The translations under genes and the position numbers were made by a program. The notes under the pieces were generated by a model that worked only from the letters and a program-made list of their open reading frames with translations, ran no database searches and was not told the DNA's origin. A DNA stretch of 32,000 nt from contig NZ_CP042911.1 in the NCBI RefSeq assembly GCF_008065095.1, positions 7,410,001 through 7,442,000 of the forward strand. The letters are read 5' to 3'. This DNA comes from Gemmata obscuriglobus. GTDB taxonomy: Bacteria > Planctomycetota > Planctomycetia > Gemmatales > Gemmataceae. Positions 8,312-22,215 of the stretch are shown in pieces (positions within the stretch are counted from its first letter, which is position 1; the number at the start of each line of letters is the position of its first letter).

Positions 8312-8635
8312 GTGTCACCCGGGGGTCAGCGTATACTGTACTACACAACGTCAAGGCAGGGGCTACACAGAAGTCTAATAACCGCCGGTTCAGACGTGTG
8401 TGTAAAACGGGTGAAATTAACGAACGCGTCTAACCCCGCGACTTGCGCCAACAATTTGCCCGTGCGTCCGTTGAGTTCGTTGACAGTGGCAGTGCGAGAG
8501 TGATACCGTGAACCCAACGGGCACCTCGCGGCCCGAACGCTTACGTCCCCCGCTCACCGCCGGCGCCACCCGCGCCCCGGACCGCCGAAACCTGGAGTCC
8601 GCGGGCGGTTCCGCCCGCACCCGGAGAACCGCAAT

Positions 8636-11107
8636 ATGGCCGTCGCGAAAGGGTACTGGGGTATCGACATCGGGCAGTGCGCCCTCAAAGCCCTTCGGCT
8701 GGAGCTGATCGACGGGAAGCCCACCGCGACCGCGTTCGACTACGTCGAGCACTCGAAGATCCTGTCCCAGCCGGACGCCGACGTGGACCTGCTGATCCGC
8801 GAGGCGCTCGACAAGTTCCTGTCGCGCAACAGCGTCAAGACCGATGAGGTGGCGATCGGGATCGCCGGGCAGTCGGGCCTGGCCCGGTTCGTGAAGCTGC
8901 CGCCGGTCGAAGAAAAGAAGATCGCGGAGATCGTCAAGTTCGAGGCCAAGCAGCAGATCCCATTCCCGCTTGATGAGGTGGAGTGGGACTTCCAGAAGAT
9001 CGGCGGCGGCGAGGCGGTGGACGGGTTCGCGCTGGAGACCGAGATCGGCCTGTTCGCGATGAAGCGGGACGTGATCTCGCGGTACATGGGGTACTTCGCC
9101 GGCAGCAAGATCGAGGTCCACCTGATCCAGATGTCGCCGCTGGCGCTGGTCAACTTCGCCACCTACGAGCTGATCAAGCCGAAGGGCGACCCGGCCGCCG
9201 CCGAGGAGGACGACACCCCGCGGGGCAAGAGCCGCTGCACCGTGGTGATGGACGTGGGCACGGACGCGTCGAACCTGATCATCACCGACGGCGCGAAGAT
9301 CATCTGGCAGCGGCCGATCCCGCTGGGCGGCAACAACTTCACCCGCGCGCTGACGAAGGAGCTGAAGCTCACGTTCGCCAAGGCCGAGCACCTCAAGCGG
9401 AACGCCGCCAAGAGCCCGGACATGGCGAGCATCCTCAAGGCGATCAAGCCGGTGCTCACCGACTTCGTCGGCGAGGTGCAGCGGTCGCTGGGGTACTTCA
9501 CCAACACGCACCGCAACGCGCACGTCGCGCACATGGTGGGGCTGGGCAGCGCGTTCAAGCTCCCGGGCCTCCAGAAGTACCTGGCGGACAAGCTGTCGCT
9601 GGAGGTGAAGAAGCCGGCCCGGTTCGAGAAGCTGACCGGCGACGCGGTGCTCAGCGACCCGCTGTTCCAGGAGAACCTGCTCACGTTCCCGATCGCCTAC
9701 GGGCTGGCCCTGCAGGGCCTCGGGCAGGCGCGGCTCACCACCAACCTGCTGCCCCAGAGCATCCGGATGGACCGCGTGATCCGCTCGAAGAAGCCGTACG
9801 CGGCGGCGGCGGCGGCGACCCTGCTGCTGGGGCTGGGCGGCATGGCGGCCGGCTTCTCCAGCCCGCACGCGGCCCTGACCGACAAGAACGTCGACAAGGG
9901 CATCCAGATGACCAAGGACGCCGGGAGCAAGTACTCGGCCCAGGAGAGCTCGTTCAGCACCAAGCTGGCCGAGAAGAACAAGAAGCAGGACGAGACCAAG
10001 CTCATCATCGCCGGGCAGGAGGAGCGGCTCAACTGGCCGCGGTTCACGGAGGTGCTCACCGCCAGCCTGCCGCGCCCCGGGCTCGAGAAGGACGGCGGCA
10101 ACCTCACCGAGGTGGGCGGCACCGTCAACGACAGCCCGGACCTCCCGCCCATCGACCAGACGAGGCTGTGGAACGGGGCGACGGGCCAGAAGGCGTACGA
10201 CTGGTTCGTGCAGCGGATGAGCGAGGGGGTGCCCATCGAGCGGGCCATTGAGGACTCCAACTCGAAGTACCCCGAGGCGCTCGCGTTCCTGAACATCGAA
10301 ACCGTCCACACCCGCTGGGTGACCAACGCGTCCGCGTTCCTCGCCGCCGCCGACGACCAAGTGCAGTTGCGGTTCGGCAACCCGATCGCGGACTGGATGA
10401 AGAACGACGAGCGGGAGAAGGACGCCGAGAAGGGGCGGTGGAAGCCGAAGGCGGCCGAGGGCGGGGCGTGGGTGATCGAGGTACGCGGGTACACGGACCA
10501 CACCGGCGGCCGGCGGTTCATCGAGCAGTCGCTGCTCCGCAACCTGCAGCGGCTCGACGAGTTCGCCAAGAAAGATAAGCTGGGCCGAGAAAAGGTGGGC
10601 GAGTTCATCGTGGGGGTGCCCGACCCGGTGAAGGGGAAAACGAGCCACGCGTTCGTGTACGGGGTGTGGCCCGTCTACAACCCGCAGCCCGGCCAGTTCG
10701 TCAACATCGGGCGCGGCTCGTACCTGGACGGGTTGGTGGGCGGGGCCGGGGCGGGCGGCCCGGGTGGCTTCGGAGGCCCCGGCGGCTTCGGCAGCCCCGG
10801 CGGCGGGGACGGTGAAACGGGGCGGGGGTCGCTCGGCCCGCCCCCGCCCAGCAGCATGGGTCCCGGCGCGATGCCCGGCGGCATGGGCTCGGGATCGGGC
10901 GCAGACGGCGCGACGGCCGCGCCCGTGGCCCTCGCCCCCGCGTGGAGCGGGTTGGGCCGGAGCGGCGGGGCCGCCGGGGCGCCGGCGGGCGTCGCCAAGC
11001 GGCCGCCCGGCGAGGTCAAGACCCGGTTCGAGTTCGTCGTGATGATGCTCTGGCGCGAGCCGACCCCGTCCACCCCGGCTGCTGCGGCGGCGGCGACAAC
11101 GCCGTGA
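8636..11107 (+). CDS. pilM: PilM (actin-like ATPase) fused to a PilN-like segment (NLLP peptide, TM helix, coiled coil, alpha/beta domain) with a C-terminal Gly/Pro-rich loop; GspL-like architecture
   Basis: 823 aa. PilM blocks are GIDIGQCALKALRLE, IAGQSGLARFVKLPP, KFEAKQQIPFPLDEVEWDFQ, VVMDVGTDASNLIITDG..PLGGNNFT, VQRSLGYF, VGLGSAFKLPGLQKYL and IAYGLALQG. TTNLLPQS follows at 9737-9760, with NLLP at 9743-9754 (aa 370-373), then a TM helix at about 9796-9858. GGAG lies 9 nt upstream of the ATG. Confidence 0.9.
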   Translation: MAVAKGYWGIDIGQCALKALRLELIDGKPTATAFDYVEHSKILSQPDADVDLLIREALDKFLSRNSVKTDEVAIGIAGQSGLARFVKLPPVEEKKIAEIVKFEAKQQIPFPLDEVEWDFQKIGGGEAVDGFALETEIGLFAMKRDVISRYMGYFAGSKIEVHLIQMSPLALVNFATYELIKPKGDPAAAEEDDTPRGKSRCTVVMDVGTDASNLIITDGAKIIWQRPIPLGGNNFTRALTKELKLTFAKAEHLKRNAAKSPDMASILKAIKPVLTDFVGEVQRSLGYFTNTHRNAHVAHMVGLGSAFKLPGLQKYLADKLSLEVKKPARFEKLTGDAVLSDPLFQENLLTFPIAYGLALQGLGQARLTTNLLPQSIRMDRVIRSKKPYAAAAAATLLLGLGGMAAGFSSPHAALTDKNVDKGIQMTKDAGSKYSAQESSFSTKLAEKNKKQDETKLIIAGQEERLNWPRFTEVLTASLPRPGLEKDGGNLTEVGGTVNDSPDLPPIDQTRLWNGATGQKAYDWFVQRMSEGVPIERAIEDSNSKYPEALAFLNIETVHTRWVTNASAFLAAADDQVQLRFGNPIADWMKNDEREKDAEKGRWKPKAAEGGAWVIEVRGYTDHTGGRRFIEQSLLRNLQRLDEFAKKDKLGREKVGEFIVGVPDPVKGKTSHAFVYGVWPVYNPQPGQFVNIGRGSYLDGLVGGAGAGGPGGFGGPGGFGSPGGGDGETGRGSLGPPPPSSMGPGAMPGGMGSGSGADGATAAPVALAPAWSGLGRSGGAAGAPAGVAKRPPGEVKTRFEFVVMMLWREPTPSTPAAAAAATTP

Positions 11108-11329
11108 CGCCAGAAAACGGGGAAACGAACCGGAATTGATCCCGAGCCGGCGACGGCCCGGGCGGCGGCAGGAGCCGGCGGGCAGACAGCCCCCGGAGCC
11201 GCCCCGCTCCGAGTGCGGCGCGGCTCCGCTTCGAATTCGTTACGGCGCCCGCGCCCATTATCGAGCCACAAAACACCCGCCGCTCTGCGGCCGCCCGTTG
11301 CCGAACACCGCCTAGTGAGGTTCGCAGGC

Positions 11330-13483
11330 ATGAAAAGCGAAAGTCCGGTCAAGAAGCACCACTTCTGGATCCTCTGCGGCGTGGTCCCGCTCGTCACGCT
11401 CATCGGTGTGCTCGTGGTGGACGCCAAGGTGGGCAGCCGGATCGATGCCCGCCAGAAGGACATCACCGACGCCGAGAGCGACATCGGCAAGAAACAGAAC
11501 GTCAAGCCGGTCAAGCTCATCAGCGAGCTCGACAAGATCTCCGCACTGGTGGAGCGGAAGCAGGGCGACCTGCACAAAGAGAACTGGGAGCAGCAGAAGG
11601 CCCTGTTCAGTTGGCCCGGCCGCTCCGAACGGTTCAAGCAGTTGGAAGACCGCCAGCTCCCGTTCGGCAGCAACCTCCCGGACCTGACCGCGCTCCACGG
11701 CGAGTTCCAGAAGGCCGAGACCTACCTGCACGAGTACTCGTCGGCGAGCGTCCGGCCCGACGGCACGGTCTCGCCGGGCACCGGGATGGCCGACCTGATG
11801 GCCCCGACCCAGTTCAACGGCGGCTGGCAGAGCGTGCTGCGGCACGTCAACGACTTCGGCCAGGTGTTCATCACGAAGGACCAGGCGTGGCTGATCCTTG
11901 AAGACATGTGGGTGCAGCGGTCCCTCCTGGCCGGGCTACGCTCCGTGAACACCGAGATGGGGAAGTTCGAGCCGGTAAAAACCAACGACGGGGGCAAAGG
12001 CGCGGCGAACCAGACCAAGGCCCGGAAGTTCCGCAACCGCATCTGGGAGGTGGAACTGGACATCGTGCCCGGGGACACCAACGGGCAGTTGCGCCTCGTC
12101 GGCAGCCTCACCAACATATCGGAACGGCTCCAGTTGTTCGGCAAGTCACCGGACGGCGGCAACGGCATGGCCCTGAACGTGTGGCTGTCCAGCAACCCCA
12201 GCGCCCAGCCGGTGGTGTTCAAGATCGGCGGCGACTTCCTGCCCGGGCGGGGGGCCGTGAAAACCGTCCCCAAAGACGGGGGGGCGCAGACGGTGCCGGC
12301 CAACGTGAAGGTTGTCGGGACGGGGCAAGACAAGGACCTTAACATCCTGCCCCCCGAGATCACTCTCGATCGGGCCGAAATCGTGCGCGTCGAACAGATC
12401 TATGACGTGCGCACCGTGCCCCTCAAGCGGATCGACTGGCTGGTGATCGGCAACCAGGCCGCGGTCGACGCTCGCAACGTCGAACCGATCGCCACCACCG
12501 GACTGCTGATGCCGCTCTCCACCGCCAACGGCGGCCTGTTCTCCGAGGCGTTCACCAAGGACCCGAACGCGGTCGACCCGAACGCTCCGGGCGGTTCCGG
12601 GTCGATGGGTCCTGGCGGGGCCGCGATGCCGGGCGGCCCCGCGATGCCGGGCGGCCCCGCGATGCCGGGCGGGCCGGGGCGCGGCATGCCGGGCGCGATC
12701 GACGGAGGGATGAGCGGCCCGGGTGGAGCCGGTGGGGCCGCCGGTGCCGCCCGGGCGATCGGTGGCGGGCCGCTGGCCGCGATCGCCGACGGGAACAAGA
12801 AGCGGTATCTGGCCGTGACCCAGCAGGTGCGCCGGATGCCGGTCGCGGTGGTGGTGGTGATCGACCAGGCGTACATCCAGGACGTACTCTTGGCCTTGTC
12901 GAACTCCCCGCTGCGGTTCCAGATCACCCAGGTGAACTGGACGCGGTTCCGCGGCAGCCTGGAAGGGCTGGGGATCACCCCGGGTTCCGGCGGGGGCGGC
13001 AACATTGACTACGGGAGCGGCGGTCCGGCGTCGTTCGGCGAGGAGTTCGGGCGGGGGGGCGGGGGCATCGGCCCGGGGCCGGGGCGTCCGCTCGGGGCCG
13101 GTGGAACCGGGTTGCCCAGCCCGATGGGTCCCGGCGGCTTTCCGGGGCCGGGTAGCCTGCCAGGAGGTCCGGGTAGCATGCCCGGAGGGCCTTTCGGTGG
13201 CCCCCCGGGTGGCTCGTCAGGCTACCCCGGTGGGGGCGGTTCTTCGGTGATGAGCGAATCGCAGATCACCTCGGGGCTCGTCGAGTTGAGCGTGTACGGG
13301 GTCGTCTCACTGTACGAAGCTCCCAAGGCCCCCGCGCCGGACGCGACCGCCGCGCCGAATACGTCGGCACCGAACACACCCGCGCCGATGCCGCCGGTGC
13401 CGAACACGCCCGCGCCAAACACCCCCGCGCCGAATACGCCGGCGCCCAACGCCCCCAAGATGCGCCGCCGCGTCCGTCGGTGA
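11330..13483 (+). CDS. large bitopic membrane protein, PilO-like topology, with two Gly/Pro/Met-rich loops and an (APNTP)n polybasic C-terminus
   Basis: 717 aa from ATG 11330, with GTGAGG upstream; the ORF track starts at 11213 inside the spacer. It has a short basic N-terminus, a TM helix (FWILCGVVPLVTLIGVLVV) and a coiled coil. A strand-helix-strand block RMPVAVVVVIDQAYIQDVLLALSNSPLRFQITQVNW is present. The PilO assignment is inference. Confidence 0.75.
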   Translation: MKSESPVKKHHFWILCGVVPLVTLIGVLVVDAKVGSRIDARQKDITDAESDIGKKQNVKPVKLISELDKISALVERKQGDLHKENWEQQKALFSWPGRSERFKQLEDRQLPFGSNLPDLTALHGEFQKAETYLHEYSSASVRPDGTVSPGTGMADLMAPTQFNGGWQSVLRHVNDFGQVFITKDQAWLILEDMWVQRSLLAGLRSVNTEMGKFEPVKTNDGGKGAANQTKARKFRNRIWEVELDIVPGDTNGQLRLVGSLTNISERLQLFGKSPDGGNGMALNVWLSSNPSAQPVVFKIGGDFLPGRGAVKTVPKDGGAQTVPANVKVVGTGQDKDLNILPPEITLDRAEIVRVEQIYDVRTVPLKRIDWLVIGNQAAVDARNVEPIATTGLLMPLSTANGGLFSEAFTKDPNAVDPNAPGGSGSMGPGGAAMPGGPAMPGGPAMPGGPGRGMPGAIDGGMSGPGGAGGAAGAARAIGGGPLAAIADGNKKRYLAVTQQVRRMPVAVVVVIDQAYIQDVLLALSNSPLRFQITQVNWTRFRGSLEGLGITPGSGGGGNIDYGSGGPASFGEEFGRGGGGIGPGPGRPLGAGGTGLPSPMGPGGFPGPGSLPGGPGSMPGGPFGGPPGGSSGYPGGGGSSVMSESQITSGLVELSVYGVVSLYEAPKAPAPDATAAPNTSAPNTPAPMPPVPNTPAPNTPAPNTPAPNAPKMRRRVRR
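12623..12676 (+). repeat. in-frame 18-bp tandem repeat (about 3 copies) encoding (AMPGGP)n
   Basis: gcgatgccgggcggcccc at 12623-12640 is identical to 12641-12658. The third copy, 12659-12676, has 2 mismatches. Confidence 0.9.
13352..13456 (+). repeat. in-frame 15-bp tandem repeat, 7 degenerate copies encoding APNT(S/P)-type pentapeptides
   Basis: The units translate as APNTS APNTP APMPP VPNTP APNTP APNTP APNAP, followed by KMRRRVRR and the stop. Confidence 0.9.
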
Positions 13484-13618
13484 CGCCACGCCTCCCGCGC
13501 CCGGCGCGGGAGCCCGCGAATCACAATCGACCCCAACCGGCTCCAACATTCCCCGGGCGCCCCCCGTTAATCAACCGGCGACCCGGGCGCGAACACCGGC
13601 CCACACGAGGGACCAACC

Positions 13619-16150
13619 GTGGCGAAAGCGAAGATCAAATTCGACCCGAAGGACTTCTTGCTCAAAAAGGGCGAGTACCTGGTGATGGGAGTGGCCGGCT
13701 TTTGCCTGGTCGTGCTGCTCATCTGGGGTGTGACCAAGTGGAGCAGCGCCAAGGACCCCACCGAGATCGCCAGTAAGCTCGCCCAAAGTGCCAACAACCT
13801 CACGCAGAAGATCCAGAACGATTCGGCTTCGCCCAAGGACCTGGAAGAGATCCAGCCGCTCCCGTTCATCGTCAAGCCGCCGATCAACAAGCCGGCGAAG
13901 ATCAGCGACTTCCCGATCCAGGTGCCGCTGTTCGACCCGACGGCGCAGCCGAACACGAAGCGGGAAAACCCGTTCGTGCTCACCGTGGGGGAGTACCAGG
14001 TGGACCTTACCCGGTCCGCGATGCCCGGGTACGACATCATCTACAACAACGACAACGAGCCGCTGATCGCGGTGCTCGCCACCAAGGTCAAGAACCCGCT
14101 GGACGCGGCCAAAATCAAGCAGGTGGGGGACGTTCTCAAAAACAAGGGAATACAAGGCAAGAAGGTGACCAAGCAGCCGCAGCAACCGCAGCCGGGGGGG
14201 CAGTTCGGCCCCGGCGGTTCGCCCGGGCAGTTCGGCCCCGGCGGACCGGGCGGGTTTCCCGGACAGGTCGGCCCCGGCGGATCGCCCGGGCTGGGTGGTC
14301 CGGGGCGCGGCGGACCGCCGGGGGCGGGCGGTGAAGGCCCGATGCCCGGGTCGCCGTTCGGCATGCCCGGCGGCATGTTCGACAACAACGGCCGACGCAA
14401 CGATGAAGGTCGGGTGCTCACCTACGTGCCGCTGGCGGACATCGACAAGGAACTCGCGGCCGGCCGGAACCCGGCGCTGACCGTGATCCCGGTGCGGCTG
14501 GTCACCATCCACGCGGCGGTGCCCTACAAGCAGCAACTGGAGGAGGCGCGGCGGGCGTTGCGCCTGTCGTCCCCGGTGCCGATCCCGGACGGCAAGGGCG
14601 GGTTCCGGAACCAGGCCGAACTCGACGCCGCCGAAGCCGAGGCCCGGCGCTTTGTGTGGTACGACGGGTTCGACATCCAGCGCCGCGAAACGCAGGTCAT
14701 GAGCGACGGGCAGGTGCGAGTCATTCAGGAGTGGGGCGAGGTGGTGCCCAAGGACAACCGGTCCGACTTCAACTACAAGTTCGAAGAGAAGTACATCGAG
14801 AAGATCCACACCCGGGCCGTCGGGCACCACTACGACGAGGGCTTCCTCCCGTATTTCCTGAAGCCCGAGATGATGCTGTCGATGCCGATGCCGCTCCTGG
14901 CCCCGGACCTGAAAGTGAAGTACCCCGAGATCCGGCTCAAGTCGATCACCGACAACATCAAGAAGCTGGAGGACGCCGCCAAGCCCAAGGTGACGGCGTC
15001 AGAGCTGGCGAAGCAGTTGCAAGGCCAGACCTCGAGGATCGGCCTCTACGGCGGGTCGACGAACACTGCCGGCCTGTTCGGCAACGGCGGCGACTCGTTC
15101 GGCGGGGTGAGCATGCCGGGCGGCTCCCCGGGGGCGATGCCGGGCGGGCCGATGGGCATTCGTCCGGGTCCGGGCGGTTCGCCGGGAGCGCCGCCGCTGC
15201 CGGGCGGTTCCAGCGGCCCGGGCGGGCCCGGCGGCCCCGGCGGGTTCGGCTTCGGCGCCGGCGGCCCCCCGCCGGTCGAGGTCGAGAACTTCCTGCTCCG
15301 GTTCGTGGACTGTGACGTGCAACCCGGGCGCACCTACCAGTACCGCGTCCGGCTCAAGATGCAGAACCCGAACTACCAGCAGGACAAGCTGGTCGCCGAC
15401 CCGGCGTCCGCCAAGGTGCAGGTGCTGTACAGCAAATGGAAGCAGCTCGACCGGCCGATCACGGTGCCGCCCGAATCGTTCCTGTACGCGTACGACACGA
15501 AGGCGTACCGCGAGAACACCGAAACCGAGTACGCCGGCCAGAAAGAGCTGCTGAAGCGGCTCCAGTTGCAGGACCACCAAGCGGTCGTGCAAATGGCCTC
15601 CTGGATGGAACAGGTGCGCACCGAGTCCGGCGGCAAACGCGAGCCGGTGGGCGCGTGGGTGATGGCCGAAATGCCGGTGGGCCGGTGCGAGTACATCGGC
15701 CGCAAGCAGTTCGTGAAGCTGCCGCTGTGGTCGTCCGAATCGCAACCGCCCCAGTACGTGCTCCGCGAGGTGCCCGAGAAGATCATTCCGGCGAAGGGCA
15801 AGGAGGCGCCGCAGCCGAAGGGCTGGCTGGTGGACTTCTCTACCAAGTCGATCCTGGTGGACTTCGAAGGCGGCCGGGTGAAGAGCCGGTTCACCATCGG
15901 GTTCGACGACAAGGGCAACCTGATGAACAGGACCCGGGCGGTCGACGAGGACGCGTCTACGGAGATGTTGATTGTGCGCCCGAATGGCGAACTGCTGGTG
16001 CGCAGCAGCCGGGCGGACGAGAACGACGAGAACCGCACCGACATTGCCTCGAAATGGACCGACTGGCTGAAGATGGTCGAGTCCCGGAGGATCGGTGGTG
16101 GCGGGATGGGCGACGAGAACAACCCGTTCGGGCCGAAAAAGCAGCCATAA
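13619..16150 (+). CDS. large bitopic membrane protein with two Gly/Pro/Met/Phe-rich loops and C-terminal beta-rich domains
   Basis: 843 aa. GTG start at 13619 lies 7 nt after GAGGGA (13606-13611). The N-terminal TM helix is YLVMGVAGFCLVVLLIWGV. A beta-sandwich-like motif FLLRFVDCDVQPGRTYQYRVRLKMQNPNY is present. No named family recognised. Confidence 0.75.
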   Translation: MAKAKIKFDPKDFLLKKGEYLVMGVAGFCLVVLLIWGVTKWSSAKDPTEIASKLAQSANNLTQKIQNDSASPKDLEEIQPLPFIVKPPINKPAKISDFPIQVPLFDPTAQPNTKRENPFVLTVGEYQVDLTRSAMPGYDIIYNNDNEPLIAVLATKVKNPLDAAKIKQVGDVLKNKGIQGKKVTKQPQQPQPGGQFGPGGSPGQFGPGGPGGFPGQVGPGGSPGLGGPGRGGPPGAGGEGPMPGSPFGMPGGMFDNNGRRNDEGRVLTYVPLADIDKELAAGRNPALTVIPVRLVTIHAAVPYKQQLEEARRALRLSSPVPIPDGKGGFRNQAELDAAEAEARRFVWYDGFDIQRRETQVMSDGQVRVIQEWGEVVPKDNRSDFNYKFEEKYIEKIHTRAVGHHYDEGFLPYFLKPEMMLSMPMPLLAPDLKVKYPEIRLKSITDNIKKLEDAAKPKVTASELAKQLQGQTSRIGLYGGSTNTAGLFGNGGDSFGGVSMPGGSPGAMPGGPMGIRPGPGGSPGAPPLPGGSSGPGGPGGPGGFGFGAGGPPPVEVENFLLRFVDCDVQPGRTYQYRVRLKMQNPNYQQDKLVADPASAKVQVLYSKWKQLDRPITVPPESFLYAYDTKAYRENTETEYAGQKELLKRLQLQDHQAVVQMASWMEQVRTESGGKREPVGAWVMAEMPVGRCEYIGRKQFVKLPLWSSESQPPQYVLREVPEKIIPAKGKEAPQPKGWLVDFSTKSILVDFEGGRVKSRFTIGFDDKGNLMNRTRAVDEDASTEMLIVRPNGELLVRSSRADENDENRTDIASKWTDWLKMVESRRIGGGGMGDENNPFGPKKQP

Positions 16151-16175
16151 CCTTGCGGTCTTGACCGCCAGCGAG

Positions 16176-16207
16176 CGCCGCCGGAAGTTCCGGCGGCGTT
16201 TTTTATT
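16176..16207 (+). terminator. canonical intrinsic terminator closing the three-gene operon
   Basis: The stem is cgccgccgg (16176-16184) paired with ccggcggcg (16190-16198), with loop aagtt. The T-tract ttttttatt (16199-16207) follows. It begins 26 nt after the stop at 16150. Confidence 0.85.
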
Positions 16208-16411
16208 CACTTGGCCGCCCGGCCCGGTTGCCGTCCGTGGCGAGCGGCGCGGTGCCGGCACGCCGCGGACGGCACCGCGCACCGACGGGCGCAAATGCCG
16301 GGCCGTTCGATCGATCACACGGCACACCGTCCCTTCTCCTTGCCGCTCATGGTCGTACACTGGCAGCACGAAGGAATCCACTCGCCCTCACGATGGAGCG
16401 GGCCGCCCCGC

Positions 16412-17704
16412 ATGCCGATCGTTCTGTCCCTCACCGGCCACCTGAACCCGCCCGAGCGGCTCGCGCGCGACGCGGTCCGGGACTGGCTCAGCCGCGCCGC
16501 GGTCTGGTTCGAGGGGGTCGGGGACGTGGTGCTCGACGCCCGCGTGGTCCGCGACGGCGAAGACCGGCCGGTTCTGCTGGTGCTCCTGCACCCGGCGGCG
16601 CCCGCGGCCGAGATCCGGCTCGGGGCCAGCGGGAAGGTCCGCGTGACCGCGATCACGACGCCCGCCGGGCCGGGGTATCACATCCACCTGTGCGGGCTGC
16701 TGCGCCGGCTGGCGACCGAGTTCCGCTTCGCGCTGCCCCTCGACGACTGCACCGACCCCACAAACTACTTCCAGTCCCGCGACCGCGGGCGGTGCGAGCA
16801 GGCGTTCCTCCGCTGGCTCGCCGACGCGTGCGCCGCCGGCGCCACGAGCCCCGGGCTGCCCCCGAACCACGGGTACAGTCACCCGGGCGAGGTGCTCACG
16901 CCGCTGGGGCCGCGGTCGCGGGCGTGGCGCGACCAGGTCGCCGCCGACCCGGCGCGCGGGCGCGAGTTCTTCCCGTGGTGGGCGCCGGACCTCGACCCGG
17001 CGTTCTACCGGGACCGCGCGCTGGTGCGCCTCTGGTGCGACTTCCCGTGGCGTCCGCCGCTGTCGGAAGAAGAGGGCGAACTGGCGGACCAGATCGCCAA
17101 CGACCTCGCCAGCGCGTTCAAACTCGATCCCGGGGCGGAGCTGCCCTGGGCGGAGTGGCTCGAACTGCTTACCGCGATCCGCGGCGACGAGGACGGGTAC
17201 TGCGTCACGCCCGACGACGCCGGGCTGAGCATCGAACTGTGGAAGCACCTCGGCCCGCTCCCGGCGCCCGCGAAAGAGCGGATCGGGTACCGGCGCTACC
17301 CGGTCCGCGTGCAGCTCGACGGCGGGTGGTCGGTGGAGGTGCCCGGCGAGTTGCTCCGCGAGCGGAACGACGACCGCACCTGGACCGCATGGGACGGCAC
17401 ACGGACGGTGTGGTTCCAGGCGCTCCGGTTCACCAAGAAGGACGGCGCCCAGCCGACCGCGGCCGAAACCGCCGAGGTGGGCCGCAAGAGTTTACCCGAA
17501 GGGGAGGCGCTCGCCCCGCTCGACCGCGACGGGCTGCGCGGCGAGGCGGTGTTCGGGGTGGTGGAGGAGGACGGCCGACGGCTGTGGCGGCTGAGCGGCG
17601 TGACCGGTGCGTCCGGCGAACTGGCGGTGTGCAACGTGTACGTCGAGAGCGAGGCCGACCGCGACTGGGCCGTGCGCACCTGGCACTCACTCCGGCACGC
17701 CTGA
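16412..17704 (+). CDS. hypothetical cytoplasmic protein (about 430 aa), Trp/Arg/Asp-rich, no recognised domain
   Basis: ATG 16412 lies 12 nt after GGAG (16396-16399). The ORF-track start at 16211 would run through the terminator region. The same-strand alternative frame 16228-17709 is Arg/Pro junk. Confidence 0.55.
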   Translation: MPIVLSLTGHLNPPERLARDAVRDWLSRAAVWFEGVGDVVLDARVVRDGEDRPVLLVLLHPAAPAAEIRLGASGKVRVTAITTPAGPGYHIHLCGLLRRLATEFRFALPLDDCTDPTNYFQSRDRGRCEQAFLRWLADACAAGATSPGLPPNHGYSHPGEVLTPLGPRSRAWRDQVAADPARGREFFPWWAPDLDPAFYRDRALVRLWCDFPWRPPLSEEEGELADQIANDLASAFKLDPGAELPWAEWLELLTAIRGDEDGYCVTPDDAGLSIELWKHLGPLPAPAKERIGYRRYPVRVQLDGGWSVEVPGELLRERNDDRTWTAWDGTRTVWFQALRFTKKDGAQPTAAETAEVGRKSLPEGEALAPLDRDGLRGEAVFGVVEEDGRRLWRLSGVTGASGELAVCNVYVESEADRDWAVRTWHSLRHA

Positions 17705-19710: not shown

Positions 19711-20940
19711 ATGACCCGTTGGTTCAGCAAGCGGTGGGCGTGGGCCGCGGCGGTCGGCGCCACCATGACCGTGTCGCTCGCGGCGGTCGGTGCGGACGCG
19801 CCGCCCCAGAAGGTCGGCGCGACTATCTCGCTCGACATCGACGGCAAGGGCGAGCGCCAGTTTAAGGTGGTCAAGTGCGAGAAGCAGGCGGACGGCTCCT
19901 ACCACTCCGAACTCAAGGACACCAAGTCCGGGGAGACGATCACGCTCGTGGACCAACCGGACGCGGCCCCCGCGAAGGGAACCGGTGCGCCGGAGCCGGC
20001 CAAGCCCGTCGAGCCGCCGAAGGCGAAGCCGCGGACCAATGACCCGCTGACCCCGCCGCTCGCGGCAGCGATGCCCGATGCCGCGAAAGACAAAGAGAAG
20101 GACAAGGAAAAAGAGAAAGACAAGCGACCGATTCTGGGTCGCGTGTTCGGCGACCGGGACAAGTCCCCGGAACCGAACGAACCGGCGAAGAAGCCCGGGC
20201 TGTTCACCCGCGTCTTCGGTCCGAAGAAGGCGCCGGGGGCAAACGCGCCCGCCATGACGGCGCCGGCAGGCGCCAAGCCGACGAGCGCAACACCGCCGGC
20301 CGTGATCCCAACCCCCGCGGGAGGACTGACCGGCGGGAGCACCACGGCCGAGCCGCCGCGCGTGATGCCGACGAGGCCTGTAACGCCACCACCGGCGACG
20401 ACGGCACCGAGCATCCCGGCACCCGCACCGGCGGTGTCAACACCGTCGATCCCCGCCCCGCTCCCGGCGGCGCCGGCAACGACCGCGCCGCCGTCGATCC
20501 CACTGCCGCTGCCGGCCCCTCCGGCCGGCGGGAGCGGGCTGCCGCCGATCCCGATTCCGCCCGGCGGGACGTCGTCAACGAAGCCGCTCCAGGTCGTGGT
20601 GCCGGCGGGGTACGTCCCGGCACAAGTGGCGTTCGACCGCGACGTGGAGCCGTTCGTGATCGCCCTTCAATCGATGGCGGCCCCGTCGGCGCGGCTGACG
20701 GCCGCGAAGGGTTTGGCCGAGGGCAGGCACGGCTCGACGGACGGGGTGAAGGCGGTACTGTTCAAGGCCGCCCAGGCGGACCCGTGCGGCGAGGTGCGGG
20801 CGGCGTGCATCGCCCACCTGTGCAAACTCGGGTACTTCGACCAGCAGTTCCTGGGCCACATCCAAACGGCGTGCGGCGACCCGGACCAGCAAGTGAGCGC
20901 GGCCGCCAAGGACGCGTGCGCGAAGATGTTGCGGAAGTGA
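19711..20940 (+). CDS. secreted Pro/Ala/Lys-rich protein with a C-terminal HEAT-like repeat region
   Basis: A perfect AAGGAGG (19697-19703) lies 7 nt upstream of the ATG. The signal peptide is WAWAAAVGATMTVSLAAVGADA. A KDKEKDKEKEKDK run and a long Pro-rich linker follow. The C-terminal helical repeats carry Cys (EVRAACIAHLCKLG...VSAAAKDACAKML). Confidence 0.75.
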   Translation: MTRWFSKRWAWAAAVGATMTVSLAAVGADAPPQKVGATISLDIDGKGERQFKVVKCEKQADGSYHSELKDTKSGETITLVDQPDAAPAKGTGAPEPAKPVEPPKAKPRTNDPLTPPLAAAMPDAAKDKEKDKEKEKDKRPILGRVFGDRDKSPEPNEPAKKPGLFTRVFGPKKAPGANAPAMTAPAGAKPTSATPPAVIPTPAGGLTGGSTTAEPPRVMPTRPVTPPPATTAPSIPAPAPAVSTPSIPAPLPAAPATTAPPSIPLPLPAPPAGGSGLPPIPIPPGGTSSTKPLQVVVPAGYVPAQVAFDRDVEPFVIALQSMAAPSARLTAAKGLAEGRHGSTDGVKAVLFKAAQADPCGEVRAACIAHLCKLGYFDQQFLGHIQTACGDPDQQVSAAAKDACAKMLRK

Positions 20941-20998: not shown

Positions 20999-22215
20999 AG
21001 GGCTCACGCACTATGAAGTGGTGGCCGTGTAAGGGTTTGTGCGTATCGCGGGGTCAGGAGGACACCGATGGCTTTGCCCCTGACCAGCGTCTTTGCGGAC
21101 CTGCCGGACCCGCGAACCGAGACGGCGAACAAGATCCACACGCTGACGGACATCCTGACCATCGCCACCTGTGCGGTGATCGCCGGGGCCGAGGGATGGG
21201 AGGACATCGCCGAGTACGGCCGTTCTAAGGAAGCCTTCTTCCGCCGGTTCCTCGAGCTCAAGAACGGCGTCCCGAGCCACGACACCTTCTACCGGGTGTT
21301 CACCAAGCTCGACCCCGACGCCTTCGCCGACCGGTTCGCCCGATGGACGGCCGAGGTGTGCGAGGCGACCGGGCTGACCCGACCCGACATCGACGGTCCG
21401 ACCCACGTCGCGGTGGACGGGAAGAGCGCCCGCCGGTCCGCCAAGCCGACGTTCTCCGGGTGCCTGCACCTGGTCGAGGTGTGGGACATCGGGAGCAACC
21501 TGATCCTCGGCCAGCGGTCGGTGCCCGAGGGCGGGCACGAGATCACCACGTTCCGGGACGTGCTCGCCACCCTGGACCTGACGGGGGCGGTGGTGACGCT
21601 GGACGCCGCCGGGTGCCAGACCGAGACGCTGGAGGTGATCCGGGCGCGGGGCGGGGAGTACGTGGTGTGCGTGAAGGGGAACCAACCGACCCTGCGGGAC
21701 GCCATCGCCGGGGTGTTCGACCGGGCCGGCGAAGCAGAATTCGCCGGGTGCGACGGGCACACGTCGGTGACCGACGCGCACGGCCGGCACGAGGAGCGGA
21801 ATGTGACGGTGGTGCACGACCCAGACGGGCTGCCGGCCGGTTGGGCGGGTGTCGGCTCGGTCGCGTTGGTGTGCCGGGACCGGCAGGTGAAGGGGAAGGC
21901 GAACGAGAGCACCGCCCACTACTACCTGAGCAGCCTGCGGGTCGGCGCGGCCGAGCTGGCCGGGTACATCCGCGGGCACTGGCACATCGAGTCGATGCAC
22001 TGGGTTCTGGACGTGGCGTTCCGGGAGGACGAGAGCCGGACGCGAGTCGGGCACGCGGGTGCCAACCTGGGGATGATCCGGCGGGTGGCCGTGTCCCTGC
22101 TCAAGCGCGCCGGGAAGAAGGGGAGTATCCACACCCGACGGCTCCGGGCCGGATGGGACGACCAGTACATGGCTCAAGTGCTCCAAGGACTCTCCACGCA
22201 TAGTGCGTAAGCCCT
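20999..22215 (+). mobile_element. ISAs1-family insertion sequence, apparently intact (about 1.22 kb)
   Basis: Terminal inverted repeats are (gt)agggctcacgcactatg at the left end and catagtgcgtaagccct(ac) at the right, with 1 mismatch. The flanking direct repeat acccgcccgtgt occurs at 20987-20998 and 22216-22227, giving an 8-12 bp TSD depending on where the IR ends. There is a single transposase ORF. Confidence 0.9.
21068..22210 (+). CDS. ISAs1-family DDE transposase (H-repeat-associated-protein type)
   Basis: 380 aa. The N-terminal block is FADLPDPRTETANKIHTLTDILTIATCAVIAGAEGWEDIAEYG...FLELKNGVPSHDTFYRVF. The DDE region is VAVDGKSARRS, VTLDAAGCQ and IRGHWHIESMHWVLDVAFREDESR. The stop lies inside the right IR. 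Confidence 0.93.
   Translation: MALPLTSVFADLPDPRTETANKIHTLTDILTIATCAVIAGAEGWEDIAEYGRSKEAFFRRFLELKNGVPSHDTFYRVFTKLDPDAFADRFARWTAEVCEATGLTRPDIDGPTHVAVDGKSARRSAKPTFSGCLHLVEVWDIGSNLILGQRSVPEGGHEITTFRDVLATLDLTGAVVTLDAAGCQTETLEVIRARGGEYVVCVKGNQPTLRDAIAGVFDRAGEAEFAGCDGHTSVTDAHGRHEERNVTVVHDPDGLPAGWAGVGSVALVCRDRQVKGKANESTAHYYLSSLRVGAAELAGYIRGHWHIESMHWVLDVAFREDESRTRVGHAGANLGMIRRVAVSLLKRAGKKGSIHTRRLRAGWDDQYMAQVLQGLSTHSA

Follow-up and report, generated by a model that had tools for sequence, protein, structure and literature searches.

Positionally conserved, disordered Gly/Pro-rich loops in the three proteins of a PilM-domain locus of Gemmata obscuriglobus

Three consecutive genes of the planctomycete Gemmata obscuriglobus, designated A, B and C, encode proteins that together carry five long Gly/Pro-rich loops. 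The genes lie on the forward strand of a 32,000-nucleotide (nt) stretch of contig NZ_CP042911.1 (positions 7,410,001 to 7,442,000), which is called the window hereafter and has a G+C content of about 68%. The loops are a real and non-random feature of a PilM-anchored envelope platform that comprises one protein with a PilM domain and two partners of no known family; they are disordered, and they are coupled across the three proteins. The role that we favor for them, at about even chances of being right, is that of conserved and selected elastomer-like tethers or bristles of a PilM-anchored periplasmic assembly.

A first-pass annotation of the window had drawn attention to five low-complexity segments, one in A (loop A), two in B (B1 and B2) and two in C (C1 and C2). 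The segments are real, lie where that annotation had placed them in the reading frames of the three genes (Table 1), and contain all of the peptides it quoted. Each comprises 68–94 amino acids (aa), and Gly plus Pro account for 52–64% of the residues (a fraction of 0.52 in A, 0.56 in B1, 0.63 in B2, 0.64 in C1 and 0.62 in C2). The loops are nearly uncharged, with a fraction of charged residues of 0.03–0.07 and a net charge of about 0. Met is 2–2.7-fold more abundant in them than in the folded parts, potential stickers (Met, Phe, Tyr and Trp) occur about once per 11 residues, and a hydrophobic residue of any kind occurs about once per 7. A scan of 9241 aa from 20 genes in the window detected only one other Gly/Pro-rich stretch; it occupies aa 255–293 of a Pro-rich protein (19711–20940, + strand; 15% Pro overall) with a weak HEAT-repeat match.

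The short motifs that were said to recur in all three proteins exceed the expectation from 5000 within-segment shuffles. MPGG, which is found in all five segments, was observed 8 times against 0.52 expected (p<2e-4), and FG 12 times against 6.2 (p=0.0014). Shuffling with composition kept, which that annotation had named as a possible refutation, thus leaves the sharing of motifs intact. PGG (28 times against 12.4) and GPGG (13 times against 4.8) are in excess as well. A count by eye of "about a dozen" FG dipeptides thus proves to be exactly 12, and the single GLFG is present at 15071–15082. Three of the eight MPGG motifs derive from one perfect 18-nt tandem repeat at 12621–12672, so that at least 5–6 are independent, and FG reaches a density of 1 per 34 residues. 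Micro-tandem repeats of 9–27 nt are present in every loop, and the loops appear to evolve by replication slippage of units of this size.

AlphaFold2 models of B and C, built from alignments of 71–74 sequences, each reach a mean predicted local distance difference test (pLDDT) score of 77 and a predicted template modeling (pTM) score of 0.72. As had been proposed, the segments are predicted to be disordered: pLDDT falls below 50 within the loops (aa 422–470 for B1, 550–638 for B2, 193–251 for C1 and 497–550 for C2) and exceeds 90 in the folded parts around them. In the model of B, an N-terminal membrane helix and long helices precede a beta-sandwich of about 160 aa, and the chain closes with a small C-terminal domain of beta-alpha-beta-loop-beta order. 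That of C consists of an N-terminal membrane helix, an alpha/beta region and a C-terminal beta-rich domain. The suggestion that a beta-strand directly follows each loop fits C1 (strand 267–271), C2 (strand 558–564) and B2, where a short helix (643–647) comes first; it fits B1 only loosely, about 20 ordered residues lying between this loop and strand 500–512, and for loop A it relies on an invariant motif described below. Loop B2 interrupts the last beta-hairpin of the small C-terminal domain of B, in keeping with the original proposal, although the description of this fold as PilO-like found no support. Because pTM is 0.72 despite roughly 20% disordered residues per chain, the folded parts on either side of the loops would pack as one rigid body. 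Together with the order of the flanking elements, this is consistent with the view that the loops are inserted in folded bodies rather than being tails; they would be excursions from a compact core, not linkers in a beads-on-a-string arrangement.

Comparison with relatives showed the loop positions to be kept while length and sequence drift, which is the behavior that had been anticipated; the refuting outcome named beforehand, loops missing from orthologues or placed elsewhere in them, was not seen. Both B loops are present in 74 of 74 aligned B sequences and both C loops in 71 of 71 aligned C sequences, at the same positions, and loop A is present in 15 of 15 orthologues of A. The latter were taken from genomic loci (16 sequences with A itself); a word-index search with the periplasmic part of A returned 15 hits only and was probably swamped by low-complexity words. 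Loop sequences are not conserved among orthologues, and lengths between anchors vary widely (55–88, 74–158, 33–140 and 53–138 aa among the B and C orthologues that were aligned). When 1.84 billion representatives were searched with a profile, at least 872 clusters (50% identity) fell in the C family at E<=1e-30. Among 114 more distant full-length representatives of C, loop 1 spans 28–130 aa and loop 2 spans 30–169 aa with no losses, and neither falls below about 28 aa in the 185 aligned C sequences. Retention in the C, B (74) and A (16) sequences holds down to about 30% identity.

The chemistry of the loops is kept more loosely than their position. In orthologues (179 B segments and 154 C segments), GPGG (z=9.8 in B, z=15.1 in C) and PGG (z=8.5 in B, z=13.2 in C) are enriched over shuffles, and FG is enriched 1.4–1.5-fold. 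MPGG is weakly enriched in B (z=3.3) and not enriched in C (z=0.3); as a feature peculiar to the lineage of G. obscuriglobus, it was rejected as a conserved or shared functional motif. The hydrophobic flavor is Met/Phe in G. obscuriglobus and Gemmata algarum and Ile/Val elsewhere (PIGP, GPVGP and elastin-like PGVGV runs), and the hydrophobic content stays at 14–20% while the identity of the residues is swapped. In the most distant trio (L022, 59% G+C), all loop positions are kept by loops of 30–45 aa that are rich in Pro, Ala and Lys. Conserved Met/Phe stickers are not supported on these grounds, namely the Ile/Val of other lineages and the short Lys-containing Pro/Ala loops of that trio. Among the distant C representatives there are many extreme Gly/Met loops and a few short Gln-rich ones, and their loops carry about half the charge of the folded parts. 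Selection appears to disregard sequence and to favor instead a fixed loop position, a length of no less than about 30 residues, little charge, and a hydrophobic residue at roughly every 5–7 positions.

Loop 1 of the C-family members P0311, P0312, P0317, P0320 and P0321 is extremely Gly/Met-rich (e.g., GMMGGQMMGAQMMGGMGGMAGMRGG...). Such loops look like abductin or like Met-rich redox-sensitive low-complexity domains.

The loops of the three proteins are also coupled to one another. Across the 9–15 phylogenetically non-independent genomes that entered these statistics, loops of the same genome share more 3-mers (z=5.5) and more of their non-Gly/Pro composition (z=3.5) than loops of different genomes, although the three proteins are non-homologous. 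This signal stays when the composition bias of the folded parts is regressed out (z=3.9), by which genome-wide bias was rejected as the sole cause of the shared flavor. Loop lengths co-vary in 10 of 10 loop pairs (rho 0.53–0.88), with a mean inter-protein rho of 0.68 (p=0.0005), and the G+C content of the locus does not predict loop length. Two further sources of the likeness were considered and dismissed: recent gene conversion between loops, the DNA repeats shared between genes being just 60–87% identical over 20–63 nt, and paralogy of the periplasmic parts, for which the A–B and B–C profile–profile comparisons gave nothing real.

Natural single-chain fusions provide evidence that the three proteins work together. 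P0300 (1373 aa) and P0285 (1234 aa), both metagenomic, join B to the periplasmic part of A and this to C, an order that differs from the gene order A-B-C, and are devoid of the PilM domain. P0300 begins with a lipoprotein-type signal (LLCGC), and both fusions keep short Pro/Met/Gly loops at matching positions. As Rosetta-stone evidence, these chains indicate that the three periplasmic parts act together, and they argue for one complex of A, B and C. This complex would be anchored in the inner membrane and lie in the periplasm.

At the gene level, A, B and C are real same-strand genes, with third-codon-position G+C contents of 0.88–0.96. We treat them as one operon, closed by a hairpin after C, because a terminator-like hairpin follows C only and no terminator-like site on the + strand separates A, B and C. 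The order A-B-C is kept in all loci with the relevant flanking sequence, the most distant relatives included, and the genes that flank it are unrelated from locus to locus, so that only the trio itself is conserved. The start of B at the ATG at 11330 is backed by the orthologue consensus MK....LKKHHFWIL.

The component that can be assigned to a known family is the N-terminal domain of A, which family and profile matches identify as genuinely PilM. With a cutoff of 133 bits, TIGR01175 (pilM) reaches 153.9 bits over aa 9–361, PF11104 scores 102.2 bits (cutoff 27; E=3.7e-29), and a PDB profile search with the A alignment matches PilM only (3jc8 at 4e-26, 2ych and 5eou). The best family model is NF045709 (Amuc_1101_fam, "Amuc_1101 family PilM-like pilus complex protein"; E=3e-54), which aligns with aa 38–477 and thus extends beyond the PilM domain and the membrane helix. 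Its score of 184.8 bits, over model positions 36–460 of 608, misses the equivalog cutoff of 650; judged by these scores, A is related to Amuc_1101 but is not an equivalog. The PilM domain shows long runs of identical columns across Gemmataceae, whereas the periplasmic part of A diverges. This near-invariance suggests a strongly constrained cytoplasmic partner.

The periplasmic region of A comprises about 410 aa after the hydrophobic helix and has no Pfam or NCBIfam match at E up to 0.1. Loop A is split into two hypervariable parts by an L[AG]P.W island, LAPAW in the present protein, in which W770 never varies among the 16 A orthologues and P768 is kept in at least 90% of them; its counterpart in the most distant trio is DLWKPIG. 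The island may be a docking motif. The invariant motif R.R[YF]EFVVM..W[RQ]EP that follows the loop probably forms a beta-strand.

By contrast with A, proteins B and C have no match in Pfam, NCBIfam (E up to 0.1) or PDB sequence profiles, and Foldseek found no PDB chain at E <0.1 with either model. No PilO, PilN, GspM or Amuc_1100 chain was among the 50 best of 374 matches (E up to 10) of B, a search in which the whole multi-domain model served as the query and which weak local similarity could escape. Provided that the searched PDB includes a solved structure of Amuc_1100, it was missed with B and C by profile and Foldseek searches alike. PilN, PilO and PilP also gave no PDB sequence-profile match for A, B or C. 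The PilO-like fold that had been proposed for B, which would combine a coiled coil with a subsequent ferredoxin-like alpha-beta-beta repeat, thus found no counterpart in families, profiles or structures, and a PilO, PilN or PilP identity of B and C was rejected for want of Pfam, NCBIfam, PDB-profile or Foldseek support. Searches of PHROGs and PADLOC gave no matches for B or C, and a phage or defense origin was rejected on this basis.

In architecture, the trio nonetheless resembles the PilM-PilN-PilO-PilP platform of type IVa pili and the GspL-GspM-GspC platform of type II secretion. As in the pilus platform, A has a PilM domain above the TIGR01175 cutoff; with a membrane helix and a periplasmic part joined to this domain, it looks like GspL or like a fusion of PilM and PilN, and two further single-pass periplasmic proteins follow in the operon. 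Unlike in PilMNOP, no model or structure of PilN, PilO or PilP matches B or C, which, with 717 and 843 aa, are 3–4 times larger than PilO and PilP. To our knowledge, long Gly/Pro loops are not a familiar feature of PilNOP. Beyond PilM itself, none of the features checked assigned the trio to these platforms, and the resemblance is one of architecture.

The closest comparison is the MUL2 locus of Akkermansia muciniphila (amuc_1099, 1100, 1101 and 1102), NF045709 being the best model for A and both hosts belonging to the PVC superphylum (Planctomycetes, Verrucomicrobia and Chlamydiae). In MUL2, as in the trio, a PilM-like gene is followed by uncharacterized genes (PMC13174399), and the PilM-like Amuc_1101 and these neighbors are needed for mucin uptake (PMC13174399, PMC12418764). 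Among the differences, B and C match no NCBIfam model, and the score of A lies far under the Amuc_1101 cutoff. Moreover, the Akkermansia secretin Amuc_1098 adjoins MUL2 (PMC4960237), whereas no secretin is adjacent to the trio.

Several other systems resemble the loops themselves. Elastomeric proteins such as spider flagelliform silk (GPGGX), elastin (VPGVG/PGVGV) and abductin (Gly-Met-Phe repeats) are similar in composition: the trio loops share with them an uncharged Gly/Pro/Met/Phe mix and an over-representation of GPGG and PGG with interspersed hydrophobic residues, and some lineages (L014) have elastin-like PGVGV/GPPGVG runs. Unlike elastomers, the runs of the trio are short (30–110 aa), lie inside bacterial periplasmic proteins, form no long regular arrays and show no homology. 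The Pro-rich region of TonB and the linker of LpoB are long flexible envelope segments thought to reach across the periplasm or the peptidoglycan. They resemble the trio loops as long flexible segments of envelope proteins anchored in one membrane. However, spacers of this type are terminal or inter-domain and often charged (Glu-Pro/Lys-Pro in TonB), whereas in the trio there are five uncharged loops to a complex, their lengths and flavor co-vary, and B2 at least is internal, between strands of one domain.

A likeness to FG-nucleoporins invites particular caution, as nuclear-pore-like structures have been claimed in this organism (PMC5287468); that paper makes no mention of FG repeats, pili or the present proteins. 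FG-nucleoporin domains and the trio loops are both disordered and low in charge, with FG (here including one GLFG) in a Gly-rich context. In contrast to nucleoporins, FG occurs here only once per 34 residues and is enriched only 1.4–1.9-fold, Phe gives way to Ile, Val or Met in relatives, and the trio proteins are predicted to be periplasmic and anchored in the inner membrane. A search for a nucleoporin fold in the PDB with Foldseek produced only noise, exemplified by a chain of the D. discoideum nuclear pore complex at E=1.3 and a template-modeling score of 0.06. FG and GLFG are a lineage-specific flavor here and not evidence of nucleoporin ancestry, in agreement with the initial judgment that the resemblance is compositional only.

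This composition underlies the alternative that the loops are cohesive, with Met and Phe, or Ile and Val elsewhere, acting as stickers that bind across copies to give a gel-like plug or condensate of the FG-nucleoporin kind, possibly gating the uptake of macromolecules. The low charge (0.03–0.07) and the spacing of stickers (about 1 per 11 residues) and hydrophobics (about 1 per 7) would suit such a mesh, as would an FG enrichment of 1.9-fold here and 1.4–1.5-fold in orthologues, the extreme Gly/Met loops of many distant C relatives, the presence of five loops per A-B-C unit, and a flavor that is common to three non-homologous proteins of a genome beyond genome-wide bias. The kinship of A with the Amuc_1101 family points in the same direction, since mucin uptake depends on the locus of that family (PMC13174399, PMC12418764). 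However, FG density is low at 1 per 34 residues, neither MPGG nor FG is a conserved motif, nothing points to a ring or channel geometry, and Foldseek retrieved no nucleoporin-like fold with the B and C models. Furthermore, the short Lys-containing or Gln-rich loops of the most distant trio and of some representatives imply that cohesiveness is not a family-wide requirement, and we consider the mesh unlikely. A more elaborate version, in which A-B-C is a planctomycete and possibly PVC-wide periplasmic machine whose oligomers gather their loops into a cohesive Gly-rich phase with hydrophobic stickers (Met/Phe or Ile/Val), strikes us as improbable. Such a phase would form a selective barrier, or a matrix that captures macromolecules, for their uptake across the enlarged periplasm; if this were true, bacteria would have evolved, independently, a counterpart of the permeability barrier of FG-nucleoporins. 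At the other extreme, the loops might be tolerated junk, that is, neutral slippage expansions of GC-rich codons (GGN, CCN and GCN) at insertion-tolerant surface sites that merely connect the flanks. The micro-tandem repeats of every loop, the unconserved sequences, the rise of Gly content with G+C content (rho 0.54) and the confinement of the Gly period-3 signal (see below) to the G. obscuriglobus/G. algarum lineage all speak for this reading. It does not readily explain why none of the five positions has ever lost its loop, with a floor of about 28 aa for C1 and C2 in 185 C sequences and loops retained by each of the 74 sequences of B and the 16 of A, or why the distant low-G+C trio and the fusion paralogues keep theirs. 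Charge depletion and hydrophobic content are maintained, lengths co-vary across proteins, and G+C is no predictor of length; we therefore doubt that neutral expansion is the answer.

Two further possibilities were weighed. The loops of A and B could be strand-exchange leashes, long enough for the conserved terminal strand to dock on a neighboring subunit and so give an extensible oligomer. A and B do end alike, with a long loop, one highly conserved strand and a short Pro-rich tail; the strand after B2 has a pLDDT of 98 and must pack against a sheet, and a minimum loop of about 30 aa would reach a neighbor. Since the B strand is docked in cis in the monomer model and the two C loops are left unexplained, the idea has little probability in our view. 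Lastly, the loops could be ordered or ligand-binding, as collagen-like or polyglycine-II helices or as Met-rich segments that bind Cu(I) or sense redox state. Loop C1 contains, at 14198–14304, 12 consecutive Gly-X-Y triplets formed by 9-aa QFGPGGSPG units. This run exceeds the shuffle 95th percentile of 8 triplets, and the Gly period-3 signal reaches z=4.6; Met is 2–2.7-fold more frequent than in the folded parts and extreme in some relatives. The period-3 signal is, however, significant only in G. obscuriglobus and G. algarum (mostly z at most 1.7 in other genomes), Gly also occupies X and Y positions, and no order is visible in the models. In addition, His and Cys are absent as partners of Met, and many lineages have Ile/Val in its place, so that this reading appears very improbable. 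A collagen-like triple helix in particular was rejected, as the longest run of 12 triplets is restricted to C1 and the periodicity is not conserved.

The explanation that we prefer is that of elastomer-like tethers or bristles. A, B and C would be co-transcribed and would each cross the inner membrane once; their large periplasmic parts would make one complex, with the PilM-type actin-fold domain of A anchoring it in the cytoplasm. Five nearly uncharged, Gly/Pro-rich disordered loops would exit and re-enter the compact folded bodies as flexible tethers or bristles of the GPGGX or elastin PGVGV type, and those of A and B would also leash the conserved terminal beta-strand back to the core. The planctomycete periplasm is enlarged and variable, and planctomycetes take up macromolecules. 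In this wide and variable compartment, the loops would act jointly as a tether or ruler, setting a dimension of the periplasmic assembly or giving it compliance. We place the chance that this account is correct at about one half.

Several points weigh against it. The link to pilus-type machinery comes from the PilM domain, and no secretin, ATPase, platform or pilin gene lies beside the trio among the adjacent genes covered in at least 15 loci. The description of the loops as excursions from a rigid core derives from the pTM score and the order of secondary structure in the models. The co-variation of length and flavor could come from lineage-specific slippage or mutation regimes, the genomes being few and related, and the Gly and Met/Phe contents of the loops correlate with G+C content (rho 0.54 for Gly). 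Finally, a literature search returned no paper on these three proteins.

Table 1. Positions of genes, domains, loops and other elements of the A-B-C locus (window coordinates, except for the last row, which gives coordinates within the loci named)
Feature	Position	Strand	Remarks
Gene A	8636..11107	+	823 aa; PilM domain, membrane helix, periplasmic domain, disordered loop, terminal strand
PilM (actin-like) domain of A, aa 9–361	8660..9718	+	Family models and PDB profile; nearly invariant in 16 orthologues
Predicted membrane helix of A (PYAAAAAATLLLGLGGMAAGFS)	9794..9859	+	Read from sequence; conserved in the alignment
Loop A, aa 699–792	10730..11011	+	Gly/Pro/Ala-rich, hypervariable
Island LAPAW in loop A, aa 766–770	10931..10945	+	Alignment of 16 orthologues
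Strand-like element after loop A (R.R[YF]EFVVM..W[RQ]EP)	11024..11062	+	Invariant columns; kept in L022 and in fusion P0300
Gene B	11330..13483	+	717 aa from the ATG at 11330; open reading frame opens at 11213
Loop B1, aa 417–484	12578..12781	+	Perfect (AMPGGP)x3 tandem repeat inside
Loop B2, aa 549–639	12974..13246	+	Between strand 531–539 and helix 643–647 plus strand 650–662
Conserved strand after loop B2 (LVELSVYGVVSLYE)	13277..13315	+	Block 651–660 has a mean pLDDT of 98
Gene C	13619..16150	+	843 aa; identical (100% identity) to GobsT_62340 of Gemmata obscuriglobus
Loop C1, aa 186–258	14174..14392	+	Made of QFGPGGSPG-type 9-aa units
Loop C2, aa 475–552	15041..15274	+	Holds GLFG and two MPGG
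Terminator-like hairpin	16173..16211 (hairpin with T tail); 16173–16201 (hairpin)	+	13-bp stem, T tail, directly past the C stop
Recurring extra family	L005 15734–17182; L008 3405–4826; L011 3–1325; L012 3–494	varying	

Some features in and around the genes stand apart from the loops. The C-terminal tail of B (13346–13456, aa 673–709) is a separate low-complexity region with a 15-nt tandem repeat that encodes APNTP-type Pro/Thr/Asn units; its chemistry sets it apart from the five loops rich in Gly, and orthologues have tails of 5 to 130 aa. Long antisense or out-of-frame open reading frames (ORFs) cross A, B and C (8417–10648, 10675–11673 and 13571–14830, all on the − strand, among others) and, given their wrong third-position G+C pattern, are best regarded as artefacts of high G+C content. 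The neighbors of the trio in the window, which include a metallophosphoesterase, a GntR-type regulator, a response regulator and a transposase, are unrelated to it. The transposase gene, some 5 kb downstream from the end of the operon (21068–22210, + strand), is of the insertion-sequence DDE type (DDE_Tnp_1_assoc + DDE_Tnp_1). An ORF of 497 aa just past the terminator (16211–17704, + strand) has no Pfam match, lies beside C only in G. algarum (94% identity) and is probably not part of the A-B-C module. In four loci, one extra gene family recurs at distances of up to 10 kb from the trio; its side and strand differ between these loci (Table 1).

Machines that span the planctomycete periplasm are largely unknown, and the trio is defined here as one unit, with a recognizable cytoplasmic handle (PilM) and two partners whose confident folds have no match in the PDB. 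A tempting misreading of FG and GLFG motifs, in a bacterium at the center of the "nuclear pore-like" debate, is also settled. The natural fusions P0300 and P0285 could serve as a target for structural biology. The coupling of loop length and flavor across non-homologous proteins is a rare signature of disordered regions working together, and in this family it may reflect tethers that jointly dimension a periplasmic assembly.

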